Source: Candidatus Buchananbacteria bacterium | GTDB lineage: Bacteria; Patescibacteriota; Patescibacteriia; 2-01-FULL-39-33 | Length of the DNA: 64,000 nucleotides | Assembly (NCBI GenBank): GCA_030650095.1 | Contig: JAUSEE010000033.1 | Coordinates: 26,757-90,756 of the forward strand | Direction: 5' to 3' | In this document: positions 11,169-37,132 of the stretch, piece by piece | Layout: each line of letters opens with the position of its first letter | Numbering within the stretch: the stretch's first letter is position 1 | Notes under the pieces: generated by a model | The model's database searches: none | Seen by the model: only the letters and a program-made list of their open reading frames with translations | What the model was told of the DNA's origin: nothing | Translations under genes and position numbers: made by a program

Positions 11169-12158
11169 ATGAAAAATAAAAGAGTTGAGAAACTTATCCG
11201 TGATTTATCAGCCGATTATTTTGTCTTTGCGCCTCAAAAATTAGGCGCTGATTTGGCTCCGGGCTATGAATACGGCATCAGCGAAGTTAAGGATATAAAT
11301 AATATAGATTGGTCGGGGCGGGTGCCTTATGGCAATTGGAAAGAAGTTTTACTGCCTCATCATGAGCGTCTTTTTGATCTTAAAAATGGAGAACTAATTA
11401 AAGCCAAGGCTAATAGTCCGTTAATCGCTTGTCTGGGCATGAATATTTTGGATTTAAAAGCCCTCACTCTTTTTGAACAGGTTTTTGCCAATGATGTTTA
11501 TTATCAGGAACGCCGGCGCAATCTTTTGATTATAGGTTATAGCACCGGCTTGCCTAATGATTATAAAAAGAATAAAGTTTTTTCCCACAATTACAAAGAG
11601 GATATTTTAGAGCATGTTGTTTTTGATATTTTCATAACCAGCCAAAGCAATGGGAAAATAGCTCTTTATTCCGGCTCGGAGAAAGGCCAAAAAATATTGG
11701 AAAAATACGGCCTGGGTGATTATCAGCATATAGAATTTTCCGGTCCAGTGGCTGAAAGCGGACCGGATAAAAGAATGGCGTCTATTGCCAAAAAAATGGA
11801 AAATTCTTTCAACCATCCGGTGTGGGACGATTTGAATAAAAGATGCATCGCCTGCAGCAAATGCACCATTGCTTGCCCGACTTGCTTTTGTTTTGATCTG
11901 GAAGACAGGAATGATCCGGCGGATAAATCACGCAGTCGCAAATGGAGCTCCTGCTTTAACAGCGATTTCACTTTGATTGCCGGCGGCCAAGATGATTTGG
12001 ATACGGTTAAAAAGAAAATATTTTTTTGGTATTTCCATAAATTTGTCAGAATACCCAAAGAGTATTCACTGCCCGGCTGCGTGGGTTGCAATCGTTGCAC
12101 CCTAGCCTGCCCGGTAGGAATTGACATCAATAAGACAATTCAATCTTTGATGAAATAA
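11169..12158 (+). CDS. [NiFe]-hydrogenase (group-3-like) beta subunit / AsrA-like 4Fe-4S protein
   Basis: 329 aa; two ferredoxin-type motifs CIACSKCTIACP and CVGCNRCTLACP; architecture of sulfhydrogenase HydB / anaerobic sulfite reductase AsrA. Confidence 0.7.
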   Translation: MKNKRVEKLIRDLSADYFVFAPQKLGADLAPGYEYGISEVKDINNIDWSGRVPYGNWKEVLLPHHERLFDLKNGELIKAKANSPLIACLGMNILDLKALTLFEQVFANDVYYQERRRNLLIIGYSTGLPNDYKKNKVFSHNYKEDILEHVVFDIFITSQSNGKIALYSGSEKGQKILEKYGLGDYQHIEFSGPVAESGPDKRMASIAKKMENSFNHPVWDDLNKRCIACSKCTIACPTCFCFDLEDRNDPADKSRSRKWSSCFNSDFTLIAGGQDDLDTVKKKIFFWYFHKFVRIPKEYSLPGCVGCNRCTLACPVGIDINKTIQSLMK

Positions 12159-12164
12159 ATATCC

Positions 12165-12986
12165 ATGTTTAACATCTACCAGCCGCAAAAAGCCAAAATT
12201 ATCAGCCTCAATACGGAATCAACCGATACCAAACTTTTTCGTTTAGCCTTAACTGACAAGAAAAATCAAAAAGAATTTAATTTTTTGCCCGGCCAATTTG
12301 TGCAAATCGGCTTGCCCGGCTGGGGCGAATGCCCGATTAGTTTCGCCTCTTCACCCCATCAGTCTGATAAATATTTTGAATTGGCCATCAGAAAAGTTGG
12401 CCAGTTAACAGGCCAGCTGTCAGAACTTAAAAAAGGCGATTTAGTTGATATCCGCGGCCCCTTTGGCAATGGCTTTGATGCTGATTTATTTAAGGACAAG
12501 CCCCTTGTTTTGGTGGGAGGCGGTTGCGGTTTTGTGCCATTACGACCCTTGATAATGGATTATTTGGCTGACAAAATGGAAAATACGGTTTTGCAGATAT
12601 TTTATGGCTGTAAAAATGAAGACACGCTTTTGTTTAAAAAAGAGCATGCCAGCTGGAATCGCCAAGCTGAATTGAATGTTATTTTGGAAAAGCCGTCGTC
12701 AAAATGGGCGGGTAAAAAGGGCTTGATAACCGATCTGTTTAAAAATAGAGTGATCACTTCCAATTCCATTGCTGTTTTGGTCGGACCGCCGTTAATGTAC
12801 CGCTTTGTCATTGCCGAACTGAAAAAAAGACAAATTACTGATGAGAATATTTATTTATCCCTGGAGAAAAAAATGTATTGCGGCGTCGGCGTTTGCCAGC
12901 ATTGCGCTATTGGGCCATATTACGTTTGCAAAGACGGGCCGGTTTTTAGATGGTCTGACATAAAAGACATTAACAATATTATTTAA
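12165..12986 (+). CDS. [NiFe]-hydrogenase gamma subunit / FAD-NAD(P)-binding oxidoreductase with C-terminal 2Fe-2S (HydG/AsrB/PyrK-like)
   Basis: 273 aa; FNR-like fold, GGGCGFVPLRP NAD-binding loop, C-terminal CGVGVCQHC...C cluster. 6 nt after the beta subunit. Confidence 0.7.
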   Translation: MFNIYQPQKAKIISLNTESTDTKLFRLALTDKKNQKEFNFLPGQFVQIGLPGWGECPISFASSPHQSDKYFELAIRKVGQLTGQLSELKKGDLVDIRGPFGNGFDADLFKDKPLVLVGGGCGFVPLRPLIMDYLADKMENTVLQIFYGCKNEDTLLFKKEHASWNRQAELNVILEKPSSKWAGKKGLITDLFKNRVITSNSIAVLVGPPLMYRFVIAELKKRQITDENIYLSLEKKMYCGVGVCQHCAIGPYYVCKDGPVFRWSDIKDINNII

Positions 12987-14995: not shown

Positions 14996-15049
14996 AAATG
15001 AACCCGACCCCGCTCTAAAGAGCGGGGTATTCGGGCAGCAACATTATAA
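14996..15049 (+). repeat. GC-rich repeat element, short copy (first hairpin + 3' tail only)
   Basis: aaatgaacccgaccccgctctaaagagcggggtattcgggcagcaacattataa equals copy 1 minus the internal segment bounded by the ggggtatYYgggc direct repeat. Immediately after the stop of the 14231..14995 CDS. Confidence 0.75.
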
Positions 15050-15053
15050 AAAA

Positions 15054-15075
15054 AGCTGCTATTTTTCTAGCAGCT
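15054..15075. terminator. Palindromic hairpin (agctgcta...tagcagct), probable bidirectional terminator
   Basis: 8-bp perfect stem flanked by A-run (5') and T-run (3'), between convergent genes. Confidence 0.4.
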
Positions 15076-15634
15076 ATTTGCTTGTTTTTTTGATGACGAT
15101 TTGATAGTGGTAATCAATGCCCGACCAAATACACACGAGCGATAATAATATTCCGCCTATCCAGTAGAAAAAGCCGTTTAAGAAATGAAATATTTCAAAG
15201 TTGCCGTTTTCCACCGGCATCAAAAAAATAAAAATACACATCAAAGGCAAGCTAACGGCTGTTTTGATTCTGCCTGATAGTTTGGCCGGAATCGGTTTAC
15301 TGGACACACTCCTTAAATGAGTTGAGGTGATATCTTTAAGAAATAGCAAGGCCACCGGGATAAAATGGATCATACTCATAGCCACTAGCGGCAAGTAAAG
15401 AGTTGTCAGCCACTTATCAGCCAAAGGATCATAGGTTTTTCCGAAATCGGAAATGCAATTGAATTTTCGAGCATACCAGCCGTCCAGACAATCAGTCAAA
15501 CAAACTACTAATACTAGAAATATGACCAAGAGATGTATTTTAGGCGATGTCTGGGCAAAATAAAGCAGTATTAAAAGGGGCGGGGTTAAAATTAACCGCG
15601 TTGTAGTTAAAATATTTGGTATCTGGTTTTTCAA
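15074..15634 (-). CDS. CDP-alcohol phosphatidyltransferase (PgsA-like)
   Basis: 186 aa; motif DCLDGWYARKFNCISDFGKTYDPLADK = D-x2-D-G-x2-A-R-x8-G-x3-D-x3-D. Confidence 0.8.
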   Translation of the reverse strand: MKNQIPNILTTTRLILTPPLLILLYFAQTSPKIHLLVIFLVLVVCLTDCLDGWYARKFNCISDFGKTYDPLADKWLTTLYLPLVAMSMIHFIPVALLFLKDITSTHLRSVSSKPIPAKLSGRIKTAVSLPLMCIFIFLMPVENGNFEIFHFLNGFFYWIGGILLSLVCIWSGIDYHYQIVIKKTSK

Positions 15635-15752
15635 AGTACCGTCTCCTATAGTGTGAAAAGCCTAGTTAATTTTATATACTTATTTGACGGATATGTCAAT
15701 TTAAGAAAAAAAGAAAAATCTGTTATAATAAGATAGTTTTATAACTATCCCA

Positions 15753-16565
15753 ATGTATCTGTTAAATATGATTAGAAACCGCCGAACTAAAAAGCCCAAA
15801 GTGGCCATTGTTTCTTTAACCTCCTGCGAGGGTTGCCAGTTTGTGATGCTGGATCAGGGGCAAAGGTTTTTGGATTGGCTAAAAAAAACCAATCTGGAAG
15901 AATTTCGGTTGGTAGAGGATGAGCCCATGACGGCCAAGCATTATGATATTTGTTTTATTGAGGGCAATCCGGTAACCAGAGACAATATCAAATTATTAAA
16001 ACACCTGAGAAAAACTTCTGATCTCTTGGTAGTGGTTGGCAATTGCGCGGCCTTGGGTGGTGTTTGGGAGGTAAAGAATTACCAGTCTAAGCAGAAAACC
16101 ATTAAACAAGTCTATAAAAAGTTAAAAGTAGAAAATCCCGACATCAAAGAAGTTAATAATTTTGTCAAAGTTGATTTCACTATTCCCACTTGCCCTATTG
16201 ACGGCGATGAATTTATGAGGATAGCCAATAACCTGATTGATGGCTTAGATCCTAAAATACCTCAAAATCCGGTTTGTTACGAGTGCCAGACCAGCGGTTA
16301 TGAATGCCTGCTCCTAAAAGGTGAAATATGCTTGGGCCCCATTACTTTGGCCGGTTGCAAAGCGGTTTGCTTAAAAAGCAAGCAGGCTTGCTGGGGTTGT
16401 CGTGGCTTGTTTGATAACGCCAAGGTTTTTAATTTTATGACTCATTTGCTTAATAATTTCCCGCGCGAGCAAGTTTACCGGGTTATGGAAGTATTCGGCG
16501 CCAAAGACACTATTATGGCAGAATTAGCCAGAGAGCAAAAAATAAAAATACCAATTAAAAAATAA
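15753..16565 (+). CDS. [NiFe]-hydrogenase small (delta) subunit
   Basis: 270 aa; proximal-cluster Cys motifs SLTSCEGCQ and VVGNCAALGG; further CxxC pairs in the C-terminal ferredoxin-like part. Confidence 0.8.
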   Translation: MYLLNMIRNRRTKKPKVAIVSLTSCEGCQFVMLDQGQRFLDWLKKTNLEEFRLVEDEPMTAKHYDICFIEGNPVTRDNIKLLKHLRKTSDLLVVVGNCAALGGVWEVKNYQSKQKTIKQVYKKLKVENPDIKEVNNFVKVDFTIPTCPIDGDEFMRIANNLIDGLDPKIPQNPVCYECQTSGYECLLLKGEICLGPITLAGCKAVCLKSKQACWGCRGLFDNAKVFNFMTHLLNNFPREQVYRVMEVFGAKDTIMAELAREQKIKIPIKK

Positions 16566-16721
16566 AATTATGTCTTTAATAAGATTTTTCAGAAGATTAA
16601 GCGGTCTAGTGCGTGGCAGTGCCATCATCCAAGCTCCGCCAACTCATGAGCGTTCACTGGCCGTAGCAGAGAAACCGGGACAAAAATTGCCGGAAAGCAA
16701 TGTGGTAAGGAAAAAAAAGGA

Positions 16722-17021
16722 TTGGCGTTTTTCCAAAGACGAATATTAATTAATTTTATAAATATGGGACCAGAATTATTAGAATCATTACCCGTGGATC
16801 AACTTGATTTAAAACATCACAACGGCTTACAGCTGGAATTAATGCATCAAATGATCGGCGAAAATCATTCTCGGCAGAAACAACAGGCTTGGGTTTTAAA
16901 ATACAGCCCAAAATTCAGAGAGTTAATCAACAACCCCGAGTATGATGAAATAAGAGCCCTGGCCTTAGGAGATGATTACAAGCAAGCAGCCGAACTTCTT
17001 CGCCCCCTTTTAGAAGAATAA
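16722..17021 (+). CDS. Hypothetical protein between hydrogenase small and large subunit genes
   Basis: 99-aa ORF (more likely start ATG 16764, 86 aa); helical, no motif. Confidence 0.3.
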   Translation: MAFFQRRILINFINMGPELLESLPVDQLDLKHHNGLQLELMHQMIGENHSRQKQQAWVLKYSPKFRELINNPEYDEIRALALGDDYKQAAELLRPLLEE

Positions 17022-17031
17022 AAATCAAGAA

Positions 17032-18333
17032 ATGAAAATTCAAATAAATCATATCGGCAAAATGGAGGGTCATGCTGATTTTGTGGCCGAGATATTAAGA
17101 GGCGATGTTAAATCAGCTAAATTGATTACCACCGAGGGTGCCAGGCTTATCGAGGGGATTTTAATCGGCCGACATTTTAGCGAAGCTCCGATTATTACTT
17201 CCAGAATCTGCGGTATTTGCCCGGTAGTCCATAAATTGTCTTCTATTAAAGCCATTGAAAATGCTTTCGGCTTAAAGCCGTCTCTTCAAGTCGTTAAGCT
17301 GAGGAAAATCATGAACTTATCGCAGTTGATCCATAGTCATGCGCTTCATTTGTTTTTTTTGTCATTGCCTGATTTTTTTGCCATTGAAAATGATTTGAAT
17401 TTCATAAAAAAATATAAAAAGGAAACCGAATATGCCATCAGAGTAAGGCAATGGGCTCTTAAAATAATAGAAACCATCGGCGGTCGAGCCGTGCATCCTA
17501 TTGCTTGCGAAGTGGGTGGTTTTAAAGTCTTGCCAGCTAAAAATGAATTAGTAAATTTACTTAATAATTATGAGAGTGTGTTAAAAGATGCTTTGGGGTT
17601 GGTTAATCTGGTTTTGAAAATAAAATTGCCTAAATTCAGCCGGCCTACGACTTTTGTCAGTTTAACTAACAAAGATGAATACGCTTATTATAGCGGTGAT
17701 ATTAAAGTAACCAGGCCGGACGGATCGGTAAAACACATTAAAGATTCTGATTACACCAAAAATATAAAAGAAATAGAAGAACCCTATCGAGCCGCCAAAT
17801 CGGCCACGCTAAATGGCGAGCCATTTATGGTTGGCGCTATTGCTAGAATTAATAACAATCACACCCAACTCAATCATTTAGCCAAGGGAATTTTAAAAAG
17901 CTTGAAATGGCAGTTTCCGCAATTGAATAGTTTTGAGAATATAACCGCCCAGGCCATTGAAATTGTCCACGCTTTGGAAGAGATAAACAGCTTGATAAAA
18001 GATTTGTCTAGTGATTATAATGAAAAGGAAAAAAGTTTATCAGCTGGCTTGGGAGTGATTGCCGATTCCAATCCTTTAAGTAAAGAAACCATTGGCATTG
18101 ATGCCATTGAAGCTCCGCGAGGCACCTTGTATCATTACTATAAGATTGATAAAAACGGCTATATAACCGATTGCAATATAATTACTCCCACCGTTTGTTA
18201 TCTTAAGAATATTGAAGAAGATGTTAAGGCCTACATACCGGATTTAAGCCAGTTGAGCGCTAAAAAACGAACCATTAAAATACGAGGCCTAATCAGGGCT
18301 TATGACCCTTGTATTGCCTGCGCCACCCATTAA
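17032..18333 (+). CDS. [NiFe]-hydrogenase large (alpha) subunit
   Basis: 433 aa; N-terminal Ni-binding motif RICGICPVVH (R-x-C-G-x-C-x3-H) and C-terminal DPCIACATH (D-P-C-x2-C-x2-H). Protein ends immediately after the His. Confidence 0.9.
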   Translation: MKIQINHIGKMEGHADFVAEILRGDVKSAKLITTEGARLIEGILIGRHFSEAPIITSRICGICPVVHKLSSIKAIENAFGLKPSLQVVKLRKIMNLSQLIHSHALHLFFLSLPDFFAIENDLNFIKKYKKETEYAIRVRQWALKIIETIGGRAVHPIACEVGGFKVLPAKNELVNLLNNYESVLKDALGLVNLVLKIKLPKFSRPTTFVSLTNKDEYAYYSGDIKVTRPDGSVKHIKDSDYTKNIKEIEEPYRAAKSATLNGEPFMVGAIARINNNHTQLNHLAKGILKSLKWQFPQLNSFENITAQAIEIVHALEEINSLIKDLSSDYNEKEKSLSAGLGVIADSNPLSKETIGIDAIEAPRGTLYHYYKIDKNGYITDCNIITPTVCYLKNIEEDVKAYIPDLSQLSAKKRTIKIRGLIRAYDPCIACATH

Positions 18334-18336
18334 TTC

Positions 18337-19500
18337 ATGAAAAATTTTGAAACAGGAGTAGAAAAAATAGAACCAAGAGAACTAGATGCCGAAGAGAAAA
18401 AACAATTGGGCCAAGTTTGGTCGCAGGTAATTTTAGGCCGCAGTGTTAAGCCAGAGAAGATAGAGGAAATGTCTAATGATGAACTTAAAGATTGGCTGTC
18501 GTCATCGCTTATGTCAGAAATCAGAATTTTAGCTGATGAGTGGGGCATTGCGCCTGATCAAAAATTAATTGAAGAAACCAAGGAAGATATTGAGGCGGCA
18601 GAAAAATCTAAGAGGCAGATGGCTTATATTCAAAAGTGTTTGGAAAATATTAATGAATTTGCCGAGCAAGATAGGGAAGAAAAAAGACAAAGAAGCCAAC
18701 ACTGGGATTCCTGGCCAGAAACCATGAGAGAAAATAAAGATTTTAATTGCGTGGGTGCTTCCATGCTTGGAGCTGACTTGCTTGATAGAGCTGAAATAGA
18801 AAATTATTATGGCAATCCATCCGGCCATATTATGAATGTGGTTAAATTGGCCGATGGGCGATTGGTTTATGCTGATTTTAGAAACGATCTTGTAACTGAA
18901 ATTAATCCGGAGGAAGTAGAAGTAGCGGGAATAAGAACTTTAAAAATTGATAATGATCTAATTGATTATCAATTAATTCCAGTAGTTGATAAAAATGGTT
19001 TGGCCGAAGCGGCTCTGGGCAATTTAAGTTCGCTTATCAAAGAAGCCAGTGAGAGCGATGTTTCTAACTTGAATCCGCATGAAAAAGAAGCTAGAAGGGT
19101 GGCCCAACAACACCAAAACCTTATTGAAGATGTAAGTGTCTATGATATCTATCATACTGTTTTTTCCGACAACATGTCTTTTCATAGTTCACTGGAAATG
19201 CAGGCCGAGGCGGAGAGAGTCCAATTAATCTATGATTTTGAAGATTCTTTAAAAGAATTGACAGCGGAAATAATAAATAGCCTTGGCCAAAAAGAATCTT
19301 TAAAATTAATGCTGGATAATGTTGATCAAATAGAAGAGTATCTGTCTGGAGCGGGGGAATTATCAAGCTTGCCTGATTTTTTAGGTGAAATTTTTAAAAA
19401 GGTTAAAGAAGCTTTGGCCGAATTGGCGCAAAAAGATGAAAAACTAGCCCTTAGAATGCAAAGTAAAATAATAGGGCGCATTAAAATAAATAATAAATAA
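18337..19500 (+). CDS. Hypothetical acidic protein (387 aa)
   Basis: Starts 4 nt after the large-subunit stop; Glu/Asp-rich helical N-terminus; no motif. Confidence 0.45.
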   Translation: MKNFETGVEKIEPRELDAEEKKQLGQVWSQVILGRSVKPEKIEEMSNDELKDWLSSSLMSEIRILADEWGIAPDQKLIEETKEDIEAAEKSKRQMAYIQKCLENINEFAEQDREEKRQRSQHWDSWPETMRENKDFNCVGASMLGADLLDRAEIENYYGNPSGHIMNVVKLADGRLVYADFRNDLVTEINPEEVEVAGIRTLKIDNDLIDYQLIPVVDKNGLAEAALGNLSSLIKEASESDVSNLNPHEKEARRVAQQHQNLIEDVSVYDIYHTVFSDNMSFHSSLEMQAEAERVQLIYDFEDSLKELTAEIINSLGQKESLKLMLDNVDQIEEYLSGAGELSSLPDFLGEIFKKVKEALAELAQKDEKLALRMQSKIIGRIKINNK

Positions 19501-19504
19501 TTTT

Positions 19505-19762
19505 ATGCACGATTTTCATTTGGCCGATCAGATTTATAAAACAATCATGGACTACGGCCAGAAAAACGGCTTAAAAAAAATAACTAAAGCCGAGATAGAA
19601 CTGGGTTCACTAGTAGAGCATGGAGAAGAAATTTTACCAGCCAATTTGGATTTTAATATTAAAATGCTGGCCGAGGGGGGCATAGCTGATGGTTTGGAAA
19701 TAAGTATCAAGAGAACGGTTGGCAATTCTTGGACGCTAAAAAACATAGAAGGAGACAAATAA
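19505..19762 (+). CDS. HypA-like protein, N-terminal (Ni-binding) domain only
   Basis: 85 aa; MHDFHLADQIYKTIMDYGQKNGLKKITKAEIELGSLVEH parallels HypA N-terminus (MHE motif and helix). The CxxC...CxxC zinc-finger half is absent. Confidence 0.45.
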   Translation: MHDFHLADQIYKTIMDYGQKNGLKKITKAEIELGSLVEHGEEILPANLDFNIKMLAEGGIADGLEISIKRTVGNSWTLKNIEGDK

Positions 19763-19766
19763 ATTT

Positions 19767-20945
19767 GTGAAAATAAAATCCCTAAAAGAATTAAAAAACA
19801 TAAAAGGCCAGAGAATTCTGTTGCGGGTTGATTTTAATGTGCCTATTTCCAGTGGCGGTAAAATTGACAAGAGCGAAGATTACCGCATCGTTCAAACACT
19901 GCCCACTATAAAATATCTGATTAAAAATAAAGCTAAAATAATCATAATGGCGCATCTTGGCCGCCCCGACGGCAAGGTGGTTGAAGCTCTAAGATTAGAT
20001 CCAGTGGCTGTGAGGCTATCGCACTTGCTTAAAAAAGGTATTTATAAGAGCCAGGATATTTTAGGCCAAGAAGTAGAAAAACATATAAGTGAAATGAAAG
20101 ACGGTGATATTTTAATGTTAGAAAATGTCCGTTTTGACAAGCGCGAAGAAAAGGGAGATAAAAAATTTGCTCAAGAGCTGGCCAAGTTAGGCGACATTTA
20201 TATCAATGATGCTTTTGCCGTTTGCCATCGCGATCAAGCATCGGTTTCTACTATTGCCGATTATTTGCCATCGTATGCCGGTTTTTTGCTGGAGGATGAA
20301 TTGAATAATTTAAGCGCTGTTATAAATAAGCCTATTAAACCGCTAACCGTTATAATCGGCGGAGCCAAAATATCAACTAAAATACAATTAATAAAAAGGT
20401 TTTTGACTCTGGCCGACAGCGTTCTGTTGGGCGGAGCCCTGGCTAATACTGTTTTAAATGTCATGGGTGTTACAACCGGCAAATCGCTGGTTGAGCCAAA
20501 GATGTACCCGATCATCAAAAAAATAAAATTAACCGATAATAAATTGCGTGTCCCGGTTGACGGTGTCATGGCTAAAAATTATGAGGCTAAAATTGGCCGG
20601 CTGGATGCCTTAGCCGATGTTAGACCAGAGGAGTTGATTTTAGACATTGGACCAGATACAATAAAGCTGTACGAGAAAATCATAAAATCGTCTAAAATGG
20701 TGGTTTGGAATGGGCCAATGGGATTGATTGAAACGCCTTTTTTCGCCAAAGGAACAGAGGACTTGGTTAAAATCCTGGCCAAATCCAAGGCTTATACGGT
20801 AGCCGGCGGCGGTGAAAGCGTGCAGGTAATTCGCCGTCTGGGCCTGGAAAAAAAGTTTAATTTTGTTTCCACCGGCGGAGGAGCCATGCTGGAATTTTTA
20901 GAGGGCAAAAAGTTGCCCGGTTTGAAAAAAATATTAATTAAATAA
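19767..20945 (+). CDS. pgk: Phosphoglycerate kinase
   Basis: 392 aa, GTG start; N-terminal RVDFNVP and full PGK architecture. Confidence 0.9.
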   Translation: MKIKSLKELKNIKGQRILLRVDFNVPISSGGKIDKSEDYRIVQTLPTIKYLIKNKAKIIIMAHLGRPDGKVVEALRLDPVAVRLSHLLKKGIYKSQDILGQEVEKHISEMKDGDILMLENVRFDKREEKGDKKFAQELAKLGDIYINDAFAVCHRDQASVSTIADYLPSYAGFLLEDELNNLSAVINKPIKPLTVIIGGAKISTKIQLIKRFLTLADSVLLGGALANTVLNVMGVTTGKSLVEPKMYPIIKKIKLTDNKLRVPVDGVMAKNYEAKIGRLDALADVRPEELILDIGPDTIKLYEKIIKSSKMVVWNGPMGLIETPFFAKGTEDLVKILAKSKAYTVAGGGESVQVIRRLGLEKKFNFVSTGGGAMLEFLEGKKLPGLKKILIK

Positions 20946-21935
20946 GTGAATATTATGAGAAGTAAAATTATTGTTTTCGCACCTTTGTTTTTGCTTTTAG
21001 CTCTTTTTTTGTTTCCCAGCATTAGCTTAGCGGCTGATGCTGACCTATCTGTTGAGAGCGTTTCTTTTTCACCGGCCCAGCCGCTTGTAAATCAAACGAC
21101 TAAAATAATAGTCAGAATAAAATATACGGGCAGTTCTTCTTTGACCAGTAATTCATCTGTAAACAGCTTGGCTTTTGCTCATAATGATTTCCAGCAGATT
21201 ACCAGTCCAGAGACCGGCGCATCTGTTAACCCCTCCAGTTCCAATCCGCTTTATTCGGGCACTTATTTCACTTATACTGTGGTGGGCAAATTTATTAATG
21301 CTGGCACAAAAACATTATCTCTCAAAATTGACTGGGCTAATAGTTTAGATGAATCCAATGAAAATAATAATCTGATTATGCCTAAGGTTGATGTTTTAAA
21401 ATCAGGCGACTTGATTAAATTGCCCAATGACTCGGCCATTTATTTGATTAAAGCTGATAATCAGAAGCACTTATTTGTTAACGGCCCGACTTTTTGGAGT
21501 TACCATCGTGGCAATTGGGGCGCTATAAAATTAGACGGCTCTCTGGTTTATATCCAACAAATTTCTCAAACAGCCTTTGATTCCATTGCTACCGGCAGCA
21601 ATATAGGCGTTAAGTCCGGTTCTAGGCTGATTAAATTCCAGAACAGTTCCAGGATTTATACTGTTTTCGGGCTGTCAAAGATTAAATTAATATCCGATCA
21701 AACGGCTCTAAGCTTGTACGGTTCAAAATGGAAAGATAAGGTTGTAACCATTCAAAATGGTTTTGAAGCTGATTACATCAGAGCTGATCAGGATTTCTTT
21801 GATAGCGACAGCGATGGCCTGTCCGATGAAGACGAGCGCAATGTTTATTATACCAATCCTTATAATAACGATAGCGATGGCGATAGTTACAAAGATGGTT
21901 CTGAAGTGTTTTTTGACTATAGCCCAAGTATATAA
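20946..21935 (+). CDS. Secreted protein with CARDB-like N-domain and C-terminal Asp-rich (TSP3-like Ca-binding) repeats
   Basis: 329 aa; signal peptide; DSDSDGLSDEDE and NNDSDGDSYKDGSE repeats at the C-terminus. Confidence 0.45.
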   Translation: MNIMRSKIIVFAPLFLLLALFLFPSISLAADADLSVESVSFSPAQPLVNQTTKIIVRIKYTGSSSLTSNSSVNSLAFAHNDFQQITSPETGASVNPSSSNPLYSGTYFTYTVVGKFINAGTKTLSLKIDWANSLDESNENNNLIMPKVDVLKSGDLIKLPNDSAIYLIKADNQKHLFVNGPTFWSYHRGNWGAIKLDGSLVYIQQISQTAFDSIATGSNIGVKSGSRLIKFQNSSRIYTVFGLSKIKLISDQTALSLYGSKWKDKVVTIQNGFEADYIRADQDFFDSDSDGLSDEDERNVYYTNPYNNDSDGDSYKDGSEVFFDYSPSI

Positions 21936-21959
21936 AATTAAATAATAATCATAAAATTT

Positions 21960-22754
21960 ATGCATGAAGACTGTTGCCAGGGTGAGCGTCATGCCCTGAA
22001 AAAAATATTAATGCCGATTGTCGGCATTGTCTTGGCTCTTTTGGGAGTTTATCTAATCTCTTTAACCAGGAATTCGCTTAAAAATTACGATTATATCGGC
22101 AAATCACCGGAATTCAAGAATATTATAACAGTTGATGGCACAGGCAAGGTAACCGCCAAATCAGATATTGCCATTATCAATGCCGGAGTTTTGACTGAAA
22201 AAGTTACAGTCGCTGCCGCTCAAAAGGAAAACACCGAAAAAATGAATGCGATTGTTAAATCACTTAAAGATGACTTTAAGATTGATGGCAACGATATCAA
22301 AACCAGCCAATACAATATTTATCCCCGCTATGATTGGACTAATGGCTCGCAAAGAATCATTGGTTATAGCGTGAGCCAATCGGTGGAAATAAGAGTGCGG
22401 GATTTTGATAAGATTGGCAATATTTTAGCCAAAGCCGCCGAACTGGGCACTAACACCTTAAACGGACCAACCTTTACTATTGATGATCCGGAAGTCTATA
22501 AGGCACAAGCCAGGGAAAAGGCTATTGCCCAAGCTAAAGAAAAAGCCAAAGTCTTGGCTGATCAAGTTGGCATTAAATTGGGAAACATTATAAACTTTTC
22601 TGAAAATTTCGGTTATCCTATTGCAAACACTTACAGTAACGATATGGCGTTTGGATTGGGCGGCGGAACAGAAAAATCCTTGCCGGCTCCAGATATCCAA
22701 GCGGGCAGTGAAGAAATCAATGTTACCATCAATATTAGTTATGAAATAAGGTAA
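21960..22754 (+). CDS. SIMPL/DUF541-family periplasmic protein
   Basis: 264 aa; N-terminal TM anchor; two-lobe pattern with a conserved coiled stretch AQAREKAIAQAKEKAKVLADQVG typical of DUF541. Confidence 0.6.
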   Translation: MHEDCCQGERHALKKILMPIVGIVLALLGVYLISLTRNSLKNYDYIGKSPEFKNIITVDGTGKVTAKSDIAIINAGVLTEKVTVAAAQKENTEKMNAIVKSLKDDFKIDGNDIKTSQYNIYPRYDWTNGSQRIIGYSVSQSVEIRVRDFDKIGNILAKAAELGTNTLNGPTFTIDDPEVYKAQAREKAIAQAKEKAKVLADQVGIKLGNIINFSENFGYPIANTYSNDMAFGLGGGTEKSLPAPDIQAGSEEINVTINISYEIR

Positions 22755-22783
22755 CAAATAGGTTTTATCAAAATAAAAGAAAT

Positions 22784-23398
22784 ATGATCTTAAAACCAAA
22801 AAGTATTGCATTGGTAGTCGCCGTAGTTGTAATTTTGATTGTCGGTGGAGTTTATGTTTGGCAGAAATTTAATAATTCAATTAAAGTATCACATCCAGCG
22901 GTAGTTGTTGGTGATAAATATATTCTTGATAAAGTAGGTAGTAATTATAATAAACTTTTTGAATACCAAGAAGGGTATTGTGGTTTAAATCCAAACTCAA
23001 ATCAGAAAGAATGTACCCTTATTTATGATTTTAAAGGAGTGGATGAAGACTTTGATATTCAATTTAGTATAACTGAAAATTATGAGGTAACAACTCAGGC
23101 TAATTATATTAAAATACCAAACTGCTTATCCTATCCAGAGAAATGCACTATTATACCCAAGTCAAAAGCAATAAAGATTGCTCAAGAGAATAAATTTGAG
23201 GGAGATGAAAAATTGTGGACGGTTAATTTTGATTGGGATGCACATTACAATACGGATGCTTATGTTTGGCAAATTTTTGTCACGACAGGACCCGGTCCAT
23301 GCGGTAAAAATGGACAAAATGTCGGTAAAGTAATGATAATTAGTGCGTATTCTGGAAAAGTTTTAGGTATAGAGAATACCGGCGGCGCCTGTTATTAA
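22784..23398 (+). CDS. Membrane-anchored secreted protein, paralog 1 of 3 (MILKPK family)
   Basis: 204 aa; N-terminal MILKPKSIALVVAVVVILIVGGVYVWQK is identical at DNA level (100 nt including 5'UTR) to paralog 2; variable Cys-containing ectodomain. Confidence 0.6.
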   Translation: MILKPKSIALVVAVVVILIVGGVYVWQKFNNSIKVSHPAVVVGDKYILDKVGSNYNKLFEYQEGYCGLNPNSNQKECTLIYDFKGVDEDFDIQFSITENYEVTTQANYIKIPNCLSYPEKCTIIPKSKAIKIAQENKFEGDEKLWTVNFDWDAHYNTDAYVWQIFVTTGPGPCGKNGQNVGKVMIISAYSGKVLGIENTGGACY

Positions 23399-23418
23399 TA
23401 AATCAAAATAAAAGAAAT

Positions 23419-23802
23419 ATGATCTTAAAACCAAAAAGTATTGCATTGGTAGTCGCCGTAGTTGTAATTTTGATTGTCGGTGGAGTTTATGTTTGGCAGA
23501 AGTCAACTCTTTCAGATCTGAAAGGGGCAAAAGAATTAGATAATGAAAGAGCTGAATGTGAGCTAAAAGGAGGCAAATGGATTAATCATGGAGATTTGTA
23601 TCCACCAAAACCGGTCTGTAATTTGCCAACAGCTGATGCCGGGAAAAAATGCACTGATTCTGATCAATGTGAAAGTTATTGTCAGGCACCAAAGAATTCT
23701 AAAATCGGAGTAAACACTACCGGTACATGTTATGAATGGAAACTTGCAGAATGTATGCAAGAAGTCAAAGACGGTAAAGCTGAAGCCACATGGTGTTATT
23801 AG
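23419..23802 (+). CDS. Membrane-anchored Cys-rich secreted protein, paralog 2 of 3
   Basis: 127 aa; same signal-anchor; 8 Cys in an ~95-aa ectodomain; ends WCY. Confidence 0.6.
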   Translation: MILKPKSIALVVAVVVILIVGGVYVWQKSTLSDLKGAKELDNERAECELKGGKWINHGDLYPPKPVCNLPTADAGKKCTDSDQCESYCQAPKNSKIGVNTTGTCYEWKLAECMQEVKDGKAEATWCY

Positions 23803-23850
23803 GGTATGAATTATTAATTAAAAACTGATTAAAAATTAATAATTGTTTCT

Positions 23851-24348
23851 ATGATCTTAAAACCAAAAGTATTGATTGCAGTAGTCATTATTATTTTGTT
23901 GTTAGTAGGAGGAATATTTCTTTATCGCCAGTACTCGATAAATACCGTGGCGGGAAATTATAATTTAGATGAGATGGAATGTAAATCAAATGGCTGGAAG
24001 TGGGTATCTAAATCAAGTGAATGTAATACGCCAAGAAGTAAACTTTGTCAGGAAAATTCAGATGGTACGCGTGATTGTATCAAAGATTGTGTCGAAGTAA
24101 AAAATTATGACGGCTGTAACAATTGCCAAGTGAAGGACAAAAAATTGGTAAATTGCACTTCTTGGGATTGCGCGCTTTACCAGGATCCTATATGCATTAA
24201 AAATAGACCAATAACTGAATCTTATTGTGCTGGATTTAACTATCAAAACTGCCCAAATGGTTGTGAGACGGGACCGTCGTGTTCAATATGTACGGATATT
24301 GGATGTCATATAGAAGGGTACCGAAATAATGCTGAATATTGGAAATAA
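23851..24348 (+). CDS. Membrane-anchored Cys-rich secreted protein, paralog 3 of 3
   Basis: 165 aa; MILKPKVLIAVVIIILLLVGG anchor (first 18 nt identical); >20 Cys. Confidence 0.6.
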   Translation: MILKPKVLIAVVIIILLLVGGIFLYRQYSINTVAGNYNLDEMECKSNGWKWVSKSSECNTPRSKLCQENSDGTRDCIKDCVEVKNYDGCNNCQVKDKKLVNCTSWDCALYQDPICIKNRPITESYCAGFNYQNCPNGCETGPSCSICTDIGCHIEGYRNNAEYWK

Positions 24349-24445
24349 TTACATAACTTTTTATTATAATTTTTTCTTCTATTGGTTACAAAAATAAAGA
24401 ATATTCCTAATTATTTAATGATCAAAAATAGAACCAATCAAATAA

Positions 24446-25717
24446 ATGTCTAAAATAAAAAAATTCATGGCAAAAATAAAATCAATCAAAGGACGTGAAA
24501 TATTGGATTCCCGCGGCAATCCGACTGTAGAAGTGGAAGTTGTTTTAGACAATGGCAAAAAAGCTTGGGCCGGTGTTCCATCAGGCGCTTCTACTGGGTC
24601 TTACGAGGCTTTGGAACTGCGAGATGGCGATAAAAAAAGATACGGTGGCAAAGGTGTTTTAAAAGCGGTTAACAATATCAATAAAAAAATAGCGCCCAAG
24701 CTGATAGGCTTAGATCCAACCAAACAGACAGAAATTGATAAACTAATGATTAAACTGGACGGAACAGAAAATAAATCTAATTTGGGAGCTAATGCTATTT
24801 TAGGAGTTTCTTTGGCCGTAGCCAGATGCGGCGCTTTTTCTACCGGTAAGCCGCTTTATGTCTACCTTAGAAAAAAATTCTGGCCCAAGGAAAAGCAGTG
24901 GAAATTTCCGGTGCCCATGATGAACATCTTAAATGGCGGCGCTCATGCAGGCTGGTCTATTGATATCCAGGAATTTATGGTTACGCCGCAGCAGAAAAAT
25001 ATAAAGGAAGCCGTCAGATGCGGCGCGGAGATTTTTCAATCTTTAAAATCAATTTTAAAAGATATGGGCTATCCGACGACCGTGGGCGATGAGGGCGGTT
25101 ATGCCCCATCTTTGCCCGGCAATGACAAAGCTTTATCTATTATGTCCCAAGCGATTAAAAAAGCCGGCTATGGCTTTGGCCAGGATGTTAAAATTGCCAT
25201 TGATGCCGCTTCCTCGGAATTTTTTAAGGATGGCCGATATGAAATGAAAGCCGACAAAAAAAATAGGACAGCGCCAGAGATGGTTAAAATGTATCAAAAT
25301 TGGCTGGCCAAATACCCCATTGAATCAATAGAAGACGGCTTATCAGAAGATGATTGGTCTGGCTGGAAACAGTTAACCAAACAATTGGGCCAGAAAGTCT
25401 CTTTGGTGGGCGATGATTTATTTGTGACCAATGTTAAAAAATTGAAAGAAGGCATAGCTAAAAAAATTGGCAATGCTATTTTGATCAAATTGAATCAAAT
25501 CGGCAGCGTGACCGAAACCGTGGAAGCGATAAAATTGGCGCAGAAAAATAAATATAAAATTGCCGTTTCACACAGAAGCGGGGAGACAGTTGATGATTTT
25601 ATCGCTGATTTGGCGGTGGCTTGCGGAGCGCAGTATATCAAGACCGGTTCTCTTTCACGCGGTGAAAGAGTGGCCAAATACAACAGATTGATGGAAATCT
25701 GGGATGAAGTAAAATAA
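24446..25717 (+). CDS. eno: Enolase
   Basis: 423 aa (alternative start at 24467 MAKIKSIKG); [17 protein letters not shown]-terminus and full enolase pattern. Confidence 0.9.
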
Positions 25718-27488: not shown

Positions 27489-27597
27489 CTAGTTATCAAA
27501 GCTCGCGTCTAAAACACGCGAGTTTTTATTTTTACCAGCTGTGGTTATCAATTGGTTTATTTGTGCTATAATAAATACAAATAATATCATTCAAATA

Positions 27598-29169
27598 ATG
27601 ACTAAAAAAGCAGGTTCTAAAACAAAAAAGCTACCTAAAAAAGTAGTTTTGCTTATTTTAGACGGTTGGGGTTTGGGAGAGGAAAATGAGGGCAACGCCA
27701 TTTACTTGGCTAAAACGCCGTTCATGGATTCCCTTTATAAAAAATACCCCTGGACGAAAATCAATGCTTCCGGTAAATATGTCGGCTTGCCGGCTAATCA
27801 GGTAGGTAATTCCGAAGCCGGCCATATTAATATTGGCGCCGGCCGCATTGTTGATCAGGATGTGGTAAAAATTTCCAAGCAAATTAACACCGGTGAATTT
27901 TTCAAGAATCCGGCTTTTGTCGCGGCTATTAATCATATCAAAAAAGAAAAATCGGCTCTGCATATCATAGGCATGATTTCCAATAATCAAAGCCCTCACA
28001 GTGATCCCAATCATTTGCTGGCTTTGCTTTCTTTGGCGCGCCAACATAAAGTTAAAAATATTTATTTGCATCTTTTTACTGATGGCCGCGATTCTCCGCC
28101 TCGTTCCTCGCTTAGATTAATTGAAGCTTTGGAAAGACAGTTAAAGCCCAATGAAATAATTGCCACAGTTATCGGCCGTTTTTATGCCATGGATAGGAAA
28201 AAGAATTGGTCGAGCACTTGGTGGGCTTATGAGGCGATGACCAGCGGTCAAGGGCATAAAGCCAAGAGTCCGCAAGAAGGCATTACCAGAGCTTATAATG
28301 CCGGAATCACCGATGAATTCATAGAACCGATAGTACTTTATAAAAATGGCAAAATAATTAAAAGAATTTCTAACAATGACGCTATTATATTTTTTAATTT
28401 AAGATCTGATCGGGCCAGACAAATGGCTAAACCCTTTGTTCAATCTGACTTTGAAAAAAATAATCTCTCGGCTCTAAAACGTAAAAAGGTTTTAAAGAAT
28501 ATTGTTTTTGTAGCCATGACTGATTTTGGGCCGGACCTGGATAGTATTTTAACCGCCTACCCATCTGAAGATATCAAGGATTCATTGCCGGTACTATTAA
28601 AACACAAAACCCAAATTTATATAGCGGAAAAGGAAAAATATGCTCATGTGACTTATTTTGTCAATGGCGGTTATGCTGATCCGGTCAATGGCGAAAAAAG
28701 GCTGGTGTTGCCTTCGCCATCGGTGCCTTCTTACGAAAAGACTCCAGCCATGTCTACGCCCAAAGTCGCCCAAGCGGTTATAAAAAATATAAAAAAATAT
28801 GATTTTATCTGCGCCAATATCTCCTCGCCCGATATGATCGGCCATACCGGCAATTTAAAGGCTGGCATTAAGGCGGCGGAAATAGTTGATAAATATATTA
28901 AAAAAATTTATCAAGTGGCTATGAAAGAAAAAACCATCTTGATTATTACGGCTGATCATGGTAATTTAGAGTACATGCTTGATGTAAAAACCAGGGAAGT
29001 CGTTACCGAACACACTAGTAATCCGGTGCCTTTTATTTTGATTGATAACGGCGCTTTAAGGCATAAAAAATTAAAGGCCGGCGGTTGCCTTAGTGATATT
29101 GCTCCGACAATTCTTAAAATTTTTGATATTAAAAAAAGCAAGTTAATGAAAGGGGATAGTTTAATTTAG
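27598..29169 (+). CDS. gpmI: 2,3-bisphosphoglycerate-independent phosphoglycerate mutase, paralog 1
   Basis: ORF track 27541..29169; likely start M at 27598. LILDGWG, catalytic-Ser loop GNSEAGHINIGAG, ITADHGN. Confidence 0.85.
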   Translation: MTKKAGSKTKKLPKKVVLLILDGWGLGEENEGNAIYLAKTPFMDSLYKKYPWTKINASGKYVGLPANQVGNSEAGHINIGAGRIVDQDVVKISKQINTGEFFKNPAFVAAINHIKKEKSALHIIGMISNNQSPHSDPNHLLALLSLARQHKVKNIYLHLFTDGRDSPPRSSLRLIEALERQLKPNEIIATVIGRFYAMDRKKNWSSTWWAYEAMTSGQGHKAKSPQEGITRAYNAGITDEFIEPIVLYKNGKIIKRISNNDAIIFFNLRSDRARQMAKPFVQSDFEKNNLSALKRKKVLKNIVFVAMTDFGPDLDSILTAYPSEDIKDSLPVLLKHKTQIYIAEKEKYAHVTYFVNGGYADPVNGEKRLVLPSPSVPSYEKTPAMSTPKVAQAVIKNIKKYDFICANISSPDMIGHTGNLKAGIKAAEIVDKYIKKIYQVAMKEKTILIITADHGNLEYMLDVKTREVVTEHTSNPVPFILIDNGALRHKKLKAGGCLSDIAPTILKIFDIKKSKLMKGDSLI

Positions 29170-29173
29170 AAAT

Positions 29174-30757
29174 ATGACCACCGAAAGACAAAAACCCATT
29201 GTGCTTATAATTTTAGACGGTTGGGGCGTTGCTCCGCCATCTAAAAGCAATGCTATCAGCTTGGCTAAAACTCCAACCTACAATAGTTTGGTAAAAAATT
29301 ATCCGGCCATGACTTTGCAGGCTTCCGGCGAATCAGTCGGCTTGTCTTGGGGCGAAATAGGCAATAGCGAGGTCGGCCATCTTAATATCGGATCAGGAAA
29401 ATTAGTTTATCAGAATCTGCCGAAAATAGACAAGGAAATAACTTCCGGTTCTTTTTTTTCCAACCCTACTTTGCTTAAAGCCATGGCTCAAGCCAAAAAA
29501 AATAAAAAAGCTGTTCATTTGATGGGCTTGTTTACCAGCGGTGGAGTTCATGCCTCCATAAATCATTTTTATGCTTTAGTTGAAATGTGCAAAAAAGAAA
29601 AGATTAAGGATGTTTTCGTCCATGCTTTTTTAGACGGCCGTGATATGCCTTATAATTCCGGCATTGATTTAATAGCTAAGGCCCAAGAGAAATTAAAAGA
29701 AAATAAAATCGGCCAAATAGCTTCTATCTCCGGTCGGTATTATGCCATGGATCGAGATAACCATTGGGAAAGGATAGAATTGGCCTACAAAGCTATCGTT
29801 AAGGGTGAATCTATTGATAAATTTGATGATCCGATTAAAGCGGTGCAAGCTTCTTATGATAAGAAAGTTTACGATGAAGAGTTTGTTCCGGTTGTCATAA
29901 CCGAAAAGGGCCAGCCCATAACTACCGTTGGAGCGGGCGATAGTGTCATCTTTTTTAATTTTCGTTCTGATCGAGCCAGGCAATTGACTAAAACTTTTGT
30001 TTTGCCCGGCTTTGAAAAATTTAAAAGGGATTATTTGAATAATTTATATTTTGTGACCATGACCGAATATGAAAAAGATTTGCCGGTAGAAATAGCTTTC
30101 CCGCCCGATCTGGTGACAGAACCGTTATCTAAAGTGATTTCCGATGCCAAGTTGAAACAGCTTCATATTGCCGAAACAGAAAAATACGCCCATGTAACTT
30201 TCTTTTTCAATGGCGGCCGGGAAGAATCGTATCCCGGGGAAGATCGGGTGCTGATTCCTTCGCCGCGCGTGGCTTCTTATGATCAGAAGCCGGTTATGTC
30301 AGCTAAAGAAATCACCAAAAAACTAACCGAGGTCATTATGAAAAGTGAGTATGATTTTATCGTGGTTAATTTTGCCAACGCCGATATGGTTGCTCACACC
30401 GGAGATCTCAAGTCTTCAATCAAGGCCTGTGAGATAGTTGATGATTGTTTGAAACAATTGACTGAAGTTATTTTAGGCAAAGGCGGCATTGCGTTAATAA
30501 CGGCCGATCATGGCAACGCTGAAGAACTTATGAACATGCAATCCGGCAAAATTGATAAGGAGCATAGCACTTATCCTGTGCCTTTTATCATTGTCGGCCA
30601 GAAGTGGGAAGGGAAAACCGCCGGCTTGCCGGATGGTCCTAATTCGGATTTGAGCTTAGTCCAGCCGTCCGGCCTGCTTTCTGATGTGGCCCCCACCATA
30701 CTCAAGCTTATGAATCTGGAAAAGCCCAGTGATATGACAGGAAAAAGCTTGATTTAA
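29174..30757 (+). CDS. gpmI: 2,3-bisphosphoglycerate-independent phosphoglycerate mutase, paralog 2
   Basis: 527 aa; LIILDGWG, GNSEVGHLNIGSG, ITADHGN; 4 nt after paralog 1. Confidence 0.85.
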   Translation: MTTERQKPIVLIILDGWGVAPPSKSNAISLAKTPTYNSLVKNYPAMTLQASGESVGLSWGEIGNSEVGHLNIGSGKLVYQNLPKIDKEITSGSFFSNPTLLKAMAQAKKNKKAVHLMGLFTSGGVHASINHFYALVEMCKKEKIKDVFVHAFLDGRDMPYNSGIDLIAKAQEKLKENKIGQIASISGRYYAMDRDNHWERIELAYKAIVKGESIDKFDDPIKAVQASYDKKVYDEEFVPVVITEKGQPITTVGAGDSVIFFNFRSDRARQLTKTFVLPGFEKFKRDYLNNLYFVTMTEYEKDLPVEIAFPPDLVTEPLSKVISDAKLKQLHIAETEKYAHVTFFFNGGREESYPGEDRVLIPSPRVASYDQKPVMSAKEITKKLTEVIMKSEYDFIVVNFANADMVAHTGDLKSSIKACEIVDDCLKQLTEVILGKGGIALITADHGNAEELMNMQSGKIDKEHSTYPVPFIIVGQKWEGKTAGLPDGPNSDLSLVQPSGLLSDVAPTILKLMNLEKPSDMTGKSLI

Positions 30758-36124: not shown

Positions 36125-37132
36125 ATGTTTTTAAGAAGAATAGGAATTGATTTGGGGACGACTAATATTTTAGTTCATGTGCCGAAAAGGGGGGTAGTTA
36201 TCAATGAGCCATCGGTAGTGGCCATTTCTAATATTGATAAAAAAATTATTGCTGTCGGCGCCGAAGCCAAAGAAATGCTGGGCCGAACGCCTGATACTAT
36301 TATTGCCCGGCGCCCGCTAAAAGATGGCGTGATTGCCGATTATAAAACCACCGAAGCTATGTTGAGATATTTTATCAATAAAGCTTTGGGCGGGGTGAGG
36401 ATTTTTAGGCCAGAGGTGATGGTGGCTGTTCCCGCTGGCATCACATCCACCGAAAGGCGCGCCGTTATTGATGCTACTATTGCCGCCGGAGCCAAAGCTG
36501 CTTACATTATCAAAGAGCCAATCGTAGCCGCCATTGGCGCCAATATTCCCATTGGCAGCGCTTCCGGACATATGATTATCGATATTGGCGGCGGCACTTC
36601 GGAAATTGCCGTTATTTCCTTGGGTGGCATAGTTTCTTCCACTTCGGTTAGGATAGGTGGCAACAAATTGGATATAGCGATTACTGAACACATTAGAAAA
36701 AAATATGGCCTGGCTATCGGCGAGATGACAGCCGAACGGGTTAAAATCAGTATCGGCTCAGCCTTGTATTTGGATGAAAAGCTTTATATGGATGTCAGAG
36801 GACGGGATATGATTACCGGACTGCCAAAAACCATCAGTGTGTCATCTGATGATGTTACCGATGCTATTCAAGCTGAACTCGAGGGCATCAGCAGTGCGGT
36901 TAAAAATGTTTTGTATAAAACTCCGCCGGAGTTATCGGCTGATGTGATTGATAAGGGGATTGTTATGTCTGGTGGCACCAGCTTGCTTAGAAATATTGAT
37001 AAAATGGTTTCTTTGACAACTGGCGTGTCCGCTTATGTAGCTGATGATGCTCTTTATTGCGTAGCCAAAGGCACAGGCATTGCGCTGGATAATTTAGAGA
37101 GTTATAAGAGATCAATTTTGGCGACAAAATAG
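36125..37132 (+). CDS. mreB: Rod shape-determining protein MreB (actin-like ATPase), paralog A
   Basis: 335 aa; IGIDLGTTN phosphate-1, DIGGGTSE phosphate-2, MSGGTSLLRNIDK adenosine motif. Confidence 0.85.
   Translation: MFLRRIGIDLGTTNILVHVPKRGVVINEPSVVAISNIDKKIIAVGAEAKEMLGRTPDTIIARRPLKDGVIADYKTTEAMLRYFINKALGGVRIFRPEVMVAVPAGITSTERRAVIDATIAAGAKAAYIIKEPIVAAIGANIPIGSASGHMIIDIGGGTSEIAVISLGGIVSSTSVRIGGNKLDIAITEHIRKKYGLAIGEMTAERVKISIGSALYLDEKLYMDVRGRDMITGLPKTISVSSDDVTDAIQAELEGISSAVKNVLYKTPPELSADVIDKGIVMSGGTSLLRNIDKMVSLTTGVSAYVADDALYCVAKGTGIALDNLESYKRSILATK

Follow-up and report, generated by a model that had tools for sequence, protein, structure and literature searches.

A shared 5' leader module on differing ectodomains in a three-gene islet of a Candidatus Buchananbacteria genome, and its probable recent duplication or conversion

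Within a 64-kb genomic window of a Candidatus Buchananbacteria bacterium (the window being the whole stretch of DNA analysed, 64,000 nt), two neighbouring genes for Cys-rich, putatively membrane-anchored proteins begin with the same 100 nt, and a third gene begins with a diverged form of the same sequence. This raises the question of how one leader came to head three different protein bodies. Attachment to other cells is the presumed way of life of CPR bacteria, and very little is known of how their surface proteins originate. The organism is a member of the CPR, and the window proteins have their NCBI counterparts (locus tags Q7K65_02880 and Q7K65_02885) on a 126.5-kb contig of a Candidatus Buchananbacteria MAG. 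Our analysis points, with a probability of roughly 0.7, to a modular leader on unrelated ectodomains in a small genomic islet, in which the leader copies of the first two genes (g1 and g2) were recently duplicated or gene-converted.

Comparison of the window with itself confirmed that positions 22767-22866 and 23402-23501 are identical base for base over exactly 100 nt, of which 17 nt precede the ATG and 83 nt are coding, as the original prediction had claimed. The edges of the repeat are sharp, with no extension on the left side and a difference (A versus G) at base 101. Copy 1 (22767-22866, + strand) supplies the A-rich 17-nt initiation region and codons 1-28, the putative signal anchor, of g1. 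Copy 2 (23402-23501, + strand) starts 3 nt past the g1 stop codon and heads g2. The two proteins have 28 residues in common, which read MILKPKSIALVVAVVVILIVGGVYVWQK, since the last of these codons, AAA in g1 and AAG in g2, specifies the same residue. The third gene, g3, carries a diverged leader copy at 23850-23931 (+ strand), whose first 19 nt (TATGATCTTAAAACCAAAA, the T before the ATG plus the first 18 coding nt) are common to all three genes. The g3 leader is identical to those of g1 and g2 at 57 of 84 nt (68%), and at about 59% of positions after codon 6. In the corresponding protein comparison, the similarity of the g3 anchor to those of g1 and g2 had a z score of 10 and stood above 2000 of 2000 composition-preserving shuffles. 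The three N-terminal anchors are homologous, in line with the expectation that the third gene had kept the first 18 nt and a similar anchor.

Further copies of the cassette, for which the original prediction had proposed a search, were sought at the DNA level in the window and at the protein level in sequence clusters. A 40-nt probe from the repeat, allowing up to three mismatches, has two sites only in the 64-kb window, where shuffled sequences gave an expectation of 0. No inverted copy was found with 14-18-nt seeds on the reverse strand of the window, which also holds no relevant inverted repeat, and no leftover DNA similarity to the cassette was detected in the bodies of g2 or g3. A decayed fourth copy in the spacer between g3 and the enolase gene was considered and rejected, the similarity not being significant (p = 0.17). 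In the GTDB representative genomes, a collection that does not contain the source MAG, a 19-mer of the cassette gave 21 matches, all of them chance matches in unrelated taxa with no leader-like ORF. A search of 5.8 billion protein clusters with g1 returned only g1 itself and, through the leader, g2; although the NCBI proteins of this MAG are included in these clusters, no further leader-bearing protein is known.

The original prediction had named an assembly artefact (a collapsed or chimeric repeat) as a possible refutation. In such a case, two strain alleles of one locus (leader plus g1 body and leader plus g2 body), or the parts of a chimeric join, would have been stitched in tandem through the 100 nt. 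Two circumstances favour this: the sequence comes from a MAG, and 100 nt is less than a read pair spans. The possibility was tested against an independent assembly, the Logan contigs of run SRR13727527, two of which (_97339 and _22107) agree with the window at 100% identity along 7.8 and 10.9 kb, respectively, and speak against stitching. Contig _97339 (L024) corresponds to window positions 15025-22796 and ends 42 nt past the stop codon of the upstream SIMPL gene, exactly 30 nt into copy 1. Contig _22107 (L023) starts at 23472, so that it takes in exactly the last 30 nt of copy 2, and continues through the g2 body, g3 and the enolase gene. If Logan contigs are built with k = 31, a unitig ends k-1 = 30 nt into any stretch with several neighbours in that direction. 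On this assumption, contigs that end 30 nt inside the repeat mean that the reads contain the cassette with two different contexts on its left and two on its right. The Logan graph at the cassette has two in-edges and two out-edges only, the number expected of a static tandem repeat. Allele collapse is unlikely because two alleles sharing one locus would give one left context only, with the contig of the SIMPL gene reaching 22866, whereas it actually ends at 22796. The start of copy 2 just past the g1 stop codon is also a sensible gene spacing. On the other side, exact look-ups of the cut g1 product, full g1 and full g2 gave no record, while a control with the cut g2 product succeeded. Because the g1-body unitig is without a record in the Logan index, which would suit an artefact, the junction between the end of g1 (the 3' end of which reads …GCCTGTTATTAATAA) and the cassette rests on the graph topology and the MAG. 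The 100-nt repeat is a true two-copy repeat and not a collapsed allele, and we regard an artefact as highly unlikely.

Upstream of the three genes are pgk (19767-20945), a gene for a secreted CARDB protein (20946-21935) and one for a membrane-anchored SIMPL/DUF541 protein (21960-22754); downstream are the enolase gene (24446-25717) and, 3' of it, a gene for an amine-oxidase-like flavoprotein and then two genes for iPGM. When JGI metagenome contigs were scanned with the SIMPL protein, 54 related loci were obtained. Enolase follows the SIMPL gene directly in 11 of them (SIMPL identity 41-80%). The three closest loci (L026, L027 and L028, 72-80% identity) have the order pgk-CARDB-SIMPL-enolase, with a SIMPL-enolase spacer of 23-49 nt, and the spacer reaches up to about 150 nt in the others. 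Because related loci have SIMPL and then enolase with nothing between them, the segment carrying g1-g3 (22755-24445, + strand) represents a derived, lineage-specific insertion of about 1.7 kb. The GC content of the insertion is 0.30-0.37, compared with 0.38-0.46 in the flanks, and the GC3 values of g1, g2 and g3 (0.23, 0.27 and 0.30) are 1.8-3.0 standard deviations lower than the mean of 55 window ORFs (0.395, sd 0.053). The three genes are co-oriented on the + strand with 20-48 nt between them; no terminator-like site was found between them on this strand, and the promoter/terminator scan gave nothing above shuffles. They may well be co-transcribed. Neither a recombinase nor an integrase or transposase was found among the scanned window ORFs, for which Pfam showed housekeeping genes; this search comprised a Pfam scan of ORFs with 100 aa or more outside 15-36 kb and the precomputed Pfam annotation of the Logan contigs for 15-34 kb. 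The locus is best read as a small accessory islet, specific to its lineage, within the core genome of a CPR bacterium.

The leader itself combines features of translation initiation and of membrane targeting. SD-like motifs precede only 9 of 55 window genes, and the A-rich 17 nt upstream of the ATG therefore represent a normal initiation context in this genome. The encoded peptide has a short basic N-terminus (K4 and K6) within its MILKPK start, followed by a hydrophobic run of approximately 20 residues, and contains no Cys. As read from the sequence, the hydrophobic run has no AXA-like site and is followed by WQK, and AF2 modelled a confident helix over residues 5-34 of g3, the anchor region. 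The original prediction described the three proteins as secreted. A hydrophobic stretch of 20 residues lacking an AXA-type site rather resembles an uncleaved signal anchor, and the leader most likely acts as such an anchor of single-pass proteins in the N-in/C-out orientation, with the ectodomain outside the cell; release as secreted proteins appears less likely than membrane anchoring. A reading of the cassette as an RNA element was also considered and was rejected: it folds no better than shuffled sequences (z = -0.78) and matches no Rfam family, which makes a dedicated RNA element unlikely.

The bodies that follow the leader differ in nature. The g1 product (22784-23398, + strand) is an anchored protein of 204 aa with 6 Cys and a C-terminal PepSY-like domain at aa 124-197. 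The match to the Pfam PepSY model (PF03413) covers profile positions 2-60 of 60 and is marginal, with 25.6 bits against a gathering cut-off of 24 (E = 1.5e-5). An N-terminal single transmembrane helix combined with PepSY is a common architecture among PepSY proteins, and g1 resembles these membrane-anchored proteins in having both parts. It differs from them in the marginality of the match, in a stretch of 95 residues between the anchor and PepSY that has no match, and in having no close homologue; nor was a PDB sequence match found for g1. The NCBI product name for g1 is 'PepSY domain-containing protein'.

The g3 product (23851-24348, + strand) is an anchored orphan of 165 aa with 16 Cys, for which the search of 5.8 billion clusters gave a self-match only. 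The Cys counts of the three proteins are hence 6, 8 and 16, and not the '4 to >20' given originally. Scoring of g3 against the profile of the g2 family described below, with filters off, gave -8.8, and g3 is not a member of that family. In shuffle tests, the ectodomains of g1 and g2 (p = 0.28) and those of g1 and g3 (p = 0.46) are unrelated, as had been stated; for g2 and g3, the statement holds less firmly, the comparison being marginal (z = 2.3, p = 0.03) with mainly EC-x3-G-x-KW aligned. Scans of viral contigs with g1, the g2 family and g3 gave nothing but one 32-residue match without weight (L080). Structure prediction, another check that had been proposed, was informative for one of the two proteins modelled: the AF2 model of g2 is confident (43 sequences, pLDDT 90.8, pTM 0.77), and that of g3, from a single sequence, is poor except for the helix (pLDDT 43).

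The g2 product (23419-23802, + strand) is an anchored protein of 127 aa with 8 Cys, in which aa 43-127 form a conserved C-terminal domain. A word-indexed search with g2 returned a single homologue (P0002, 52% identical), which has a lipobox signal and whose contig also encodes the archaeal ribosomal protein S3Ae. At E<=1e-3, a full HMMER profile search recovered representatives of 939 clusters, of which 154 also pass E<=1e-10. For the family HMM, 43 members were used; g2 matches it with 122 bits (E = 2.5e-39), and the match covers model positions 2-86 of 86. The domain has about 85 residues and is located almost always at the extreme C-terminus. Seven of its Cys are invariant and one nearly so, T45, D47, S55 and S60 are conserved as well, and the core motif reads C-x3-GG-x-W … CNLPTSDAGKxCxDSSQCESYCQA … TGxCY … CMQEV-NG … WC. 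The ectodomain of g2 is a full-length member with all eight Cys and the CNLPT-DAGK-C-DS-QCESYC core. It is also a minimal one, consisting of anchor and domain only, whereas other members carry an S8 protease, metallo-beta-lactamase, PKD, PG_binding_1 or DUF333 domain in front. Because the partners of the domain include S8 peptidase, metallo-beta-lactamase, PKD, PG_binding_1, DUF333 and Emfourin, and members also have lipoboxes or signal anchors, the domain is extracytoplasmic. Members with a taxon name belong to Woesearchaeota (DPANN) and Woesebacteria (CPR), and without exception their annotation is 'hypothetical'. No match to g2 was found among Pfam or NCBIfam models, PDB sequences or known folds. 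DUF333 (PF03891), considered for the C-x3-GG-x-W start of the g2 and g3 ectodomains, matched neither g2 nor g3 at E<=1; in family member P0010, the 8-Cys domain is preceded by a distinct DUF333 domain.

This 8-Cys family is large, widespread in the CPR, DPANN and other archaea, and unnamed, with neither a Pfam or NCBIfam model nor a solved structure. The g2 ectodomain is not hypervariable and belongs to a large and well-conserved domain family. The original prediction had also considered that the three proteins might have clear, separate housekeeping homologues, which would have refuted it; no such homologues were found, the searches returning only the marginal PepSY match for g1 and the unnamed family for g2.

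How, then, did the leaders of g1 and g2 become identical? The g3 leader homology spans about -1 to +81 and starts and stops near the limits of the 100-nt identity. Because it covers the same span, the module of initiation region plus anchor is older than the identity between g1 and g2; and because g1 and g2 show 0 differences in 100 nt, compared with a divergence of 32% in g3, their copying must have been very recent. Identity at all 27 synonymous sites could also reflect continuing conversion or selection. We therefore propose that one homologous 5' module of approximately 100 nt, consisting of an A-rich, SD-less initiation region, the MILKPK start and a hydrophobic helix some 20 residues long, would have been joined to three bodies, a PepSY-like one in g1, the 8-Cys domain in g2 and the 16-Cys orphan in g3. 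A very recent event at the DNA level would then have made the g1 and g2 modules identical, either because the module was duplicated onto another ORF body or through conversion between adjacent paralogous leaders, in which case the tract would have been limited by the ends of homology. The module would supply translation initiation and Sec/SRP targeting with membrane anchoring, and the ectodomains might act at the cell surface, perhaps in binding or in protease control. Duplication or conversion is the probable cause of the identity, and a single genome fits both alike. The proposal in the original prediction that gene conversion or shuffling maintains a common export leader is thus reasonable, recent conversion or duplication being its simplest reading.

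Two other causes deserve attention, both of them less likely than duplication or conversion. The cassette could be a recombination site at which ectodomain bodies are swapped or deleted behind one expressed leader, leading to phase or antigenic variation in the manner of the mycoplasma vsp, vpma and vsa loci. The layout invites this comparison, because in M. bovis vsp, M. agalactiae vpma and M. pulmonis vsa the clustered genes have a highly conserved 5' UTR and signal-peptide region and mature parts without significant homology (PMC2268961). In g1 and g2, 100 of 100 nt of the 5' region are identical, the g3 anchor is homologous and the ectodomains differ, and the organisms share small genomes and dependence on a host. 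In addition, the direct repeats would allow the 635-bp g1 unit to loop out. CPR bacteria presumably rely on cell-surface contact with their hosts. However, the mycoplasma proteins are lipoproteins with a lipobox, whereas the leader described here contains no Cys. The mycoplasma genes are arranged in both orientations with one promoter and have an adjacent Xer-type recombinase that acts on sites in the 5' UTR, whereas g1-g3 are co-oriented with their own starts, the scanned ORFs of the 64-kb window include no recombinase of the tyrosine or serine type, no integrase and no transposase, and no inverted copy of the cassette is present. Because each of the three genes has its own complete start, none of them is a silent cassette. 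Identical copies number two, no other leader-bearing protein appears in the database, and a deletion between direct repeats would be irreversible. The locus is not a vsp/vpma-type system, since recombinase, inverted sites and silent cassettes are all lacking, and programmed variation is very unlikely. The 'variable effector family' of the original prediction is likewise not supported, with three leader genes only, no recombinase, no inverted cassette and a conserved g2 domain.

The other cause would be selection on the nucleic acid itself, the 100 nt serving as a shared regulatory or targeting element (a site for an sRNA or a protein, or mRNA-encoded membrane targeting) in which synonymous changes are not tolerated. 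The complete lack of differences, synonymous sites included, would fit this idea, as would the identity of the first 18 coding nt even in the diverged g3 leader. Against it, the folding and Rfam results given above offer no sign of such an element, and the sharp edges coincide with the ends of the module and not with a motif. Most of the element is also free to change, because the g3 leader is only about 59% identical after codon 6. We consider this explanation as improbable as an assembly artefact, and recent duplication or conversion remains the preferred reading.

A further known system with a partial resemblance is the lpl cluster of tandem lipoprotein-like paralogues in Staphylococcus aureus (genomic island nuSa-alpha), in which a highly conserved nucleotide segment in each ORF is a site of homologous recombination that reshuffles the variable parts (PMC2568036). 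Both are tandem clusters of exported proteins that share a conserved segment. In lpl, however, the segment lies in the middle of genes that are homologous along their whole length, and many copies are known from many strains, whereas the present locus has a conserved 5' module, unrelated bodies and one known genome, and it is not a member of the lpl system. A literature search on Buchananbacteria and on anchored Cys-rich proteins of the CPR gave nothing relevant. The arrangement is thus of a known kind, in a new example from a CPR genome, and the locus in itself is a three-gene curiosity in one MAG, with a dedicated mechanism lacking support. Its value lies in being a clean case of a modular leader on unrelated ectodomains, within an insertion for which sister genomes provide a means of dating. 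The most novel by-product of the analysis is the g2 domain family: disulfide-rich, extracellular, found in both the CPR and DPANN and confidently modelled with no known fold match, it merits a name and a structure.

A minor feature of the g1 body lies at 23224-23271 (+ strand), where two 12-mers in a patch match the 3' half of the cassette exactly and in collinear order. They are 36 nt apart, compared with 22 nt in the cassette, and one is in a different reading frame. A first-order Markov model puts the chance that the g1 body and the cassette share at least two 12-mers at about 1e-4, and duplication or conversion as proposed above leaves the patch unexplained. In a more speculative picture, which we consider rather unlikely, the leader would be a portable export head that the CPR lineage copies onto newly acquired or arisen ORF bodies for surface display, with g1 and g2 as an event caught in the act, the patch as a trace of template switching, and the 8-Cys domain of g2 as a host-attachment or surface-binding module of ultra-small episymbionts. 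Taken by itself, the patch may be a trace of template switching or of patchy conversion.

The second of the three neighbouring plus-strand genes with a shared leader, g2, encodes a C-terminal extracellular domain with eight cysteines (amino acids 43–127, window positions 23545–23799), which belongs to a large, unnamed family of 939 cluster representatives (P0002 and P0005–P0154 among the members). Domains of this type are hosted by CPR bacteria and by DPANN and other archaea. The domain was modelled confidently by AF2 (pLDDT 91). Neither Pfam nor NCBIfam contains a model for the family, and no significant match was detected when the fold was compared with those in PDB and BFVD. We regard the family as a candidate new domain family.

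The g2 ectodomain has its nearest homologue, at 52% identity, on the metagenome contig L001 (JGI 3300054698, 3674 bp). This homologue adjoins genes for archaeal ribosomal proteins (S2 and S3Ae) and carries a lipobox as its export signal, in place of the MILKPK anchor. This setting hints that archaea and CPR bacteria have exchanged the 8-Cys domain. The window encodes a further small, exported Cys-rich protein at 8114–8470 (118 amino acids, 10 cysteines, with a lipobox-like LVLGGC signal). This protein has no Pfam match and was not matched by the profile HMM built from 43 members of the g2 family.

Within the PepSY-like part of g1, the region at 23224–23271 contains two exact 12-mers, TAATTTTGATTG and TTATGTTTGGCA, arranged in the same order as in the 3' half of the cassette, the 100-nt stretch that is identical at the starts of g1 and g2. 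The reading frame differs for one of the two 12-mers, and the probability of the pair arising by chance was estimated by simulation to be ~1e-4.

Next to the insertion that carries the three genes, the start of the enolase gene contains an imperfect 21-nt tandem duplication (24440–24481; TRF score 56). Because the enolase N-terminus in relatives (MAKIKS…) matches the second ATG of this ORF, at 24467, its first start codon, at 24446, may be a duplicated pseudo-start at the insertion's right-hand border. Among loci related through the SIMPL gene, the 5' neighbour of g1, the metagenome contig L053 contains an exact 107-nt direct repeat (3190–3296 and 4114–4220) on both sides of that gene (3344–4105). 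L048 and L063 also have long exact direct repeats, of 119 nt and 299 nt respectively.

Immediately 5' of pgk lies a NiFe-hydrogenase gene set (15753–19500) encoding an Oxidored_q6 small subunit, a NiFeSe large subunit and HypA. A 4Fe-4S dicluster protein is encoded still further 5' (11169–12986), along with an FAD/NAD-binding protein that bears an Fe-S domain. The window also encodes two tandem paralogues of cofactor-independent phosphoglycerate mutase (iPGM; 27541–30757), two MreB paralogues (36125–37132 and 45761–46798) and an ankyrin-repeat protein (50839–51573). Throughout the window, an SD-like motif is present upstream of only 9 of the 55 ORFs, and the starts are preceded by A/T-rich sequence rather than SD.
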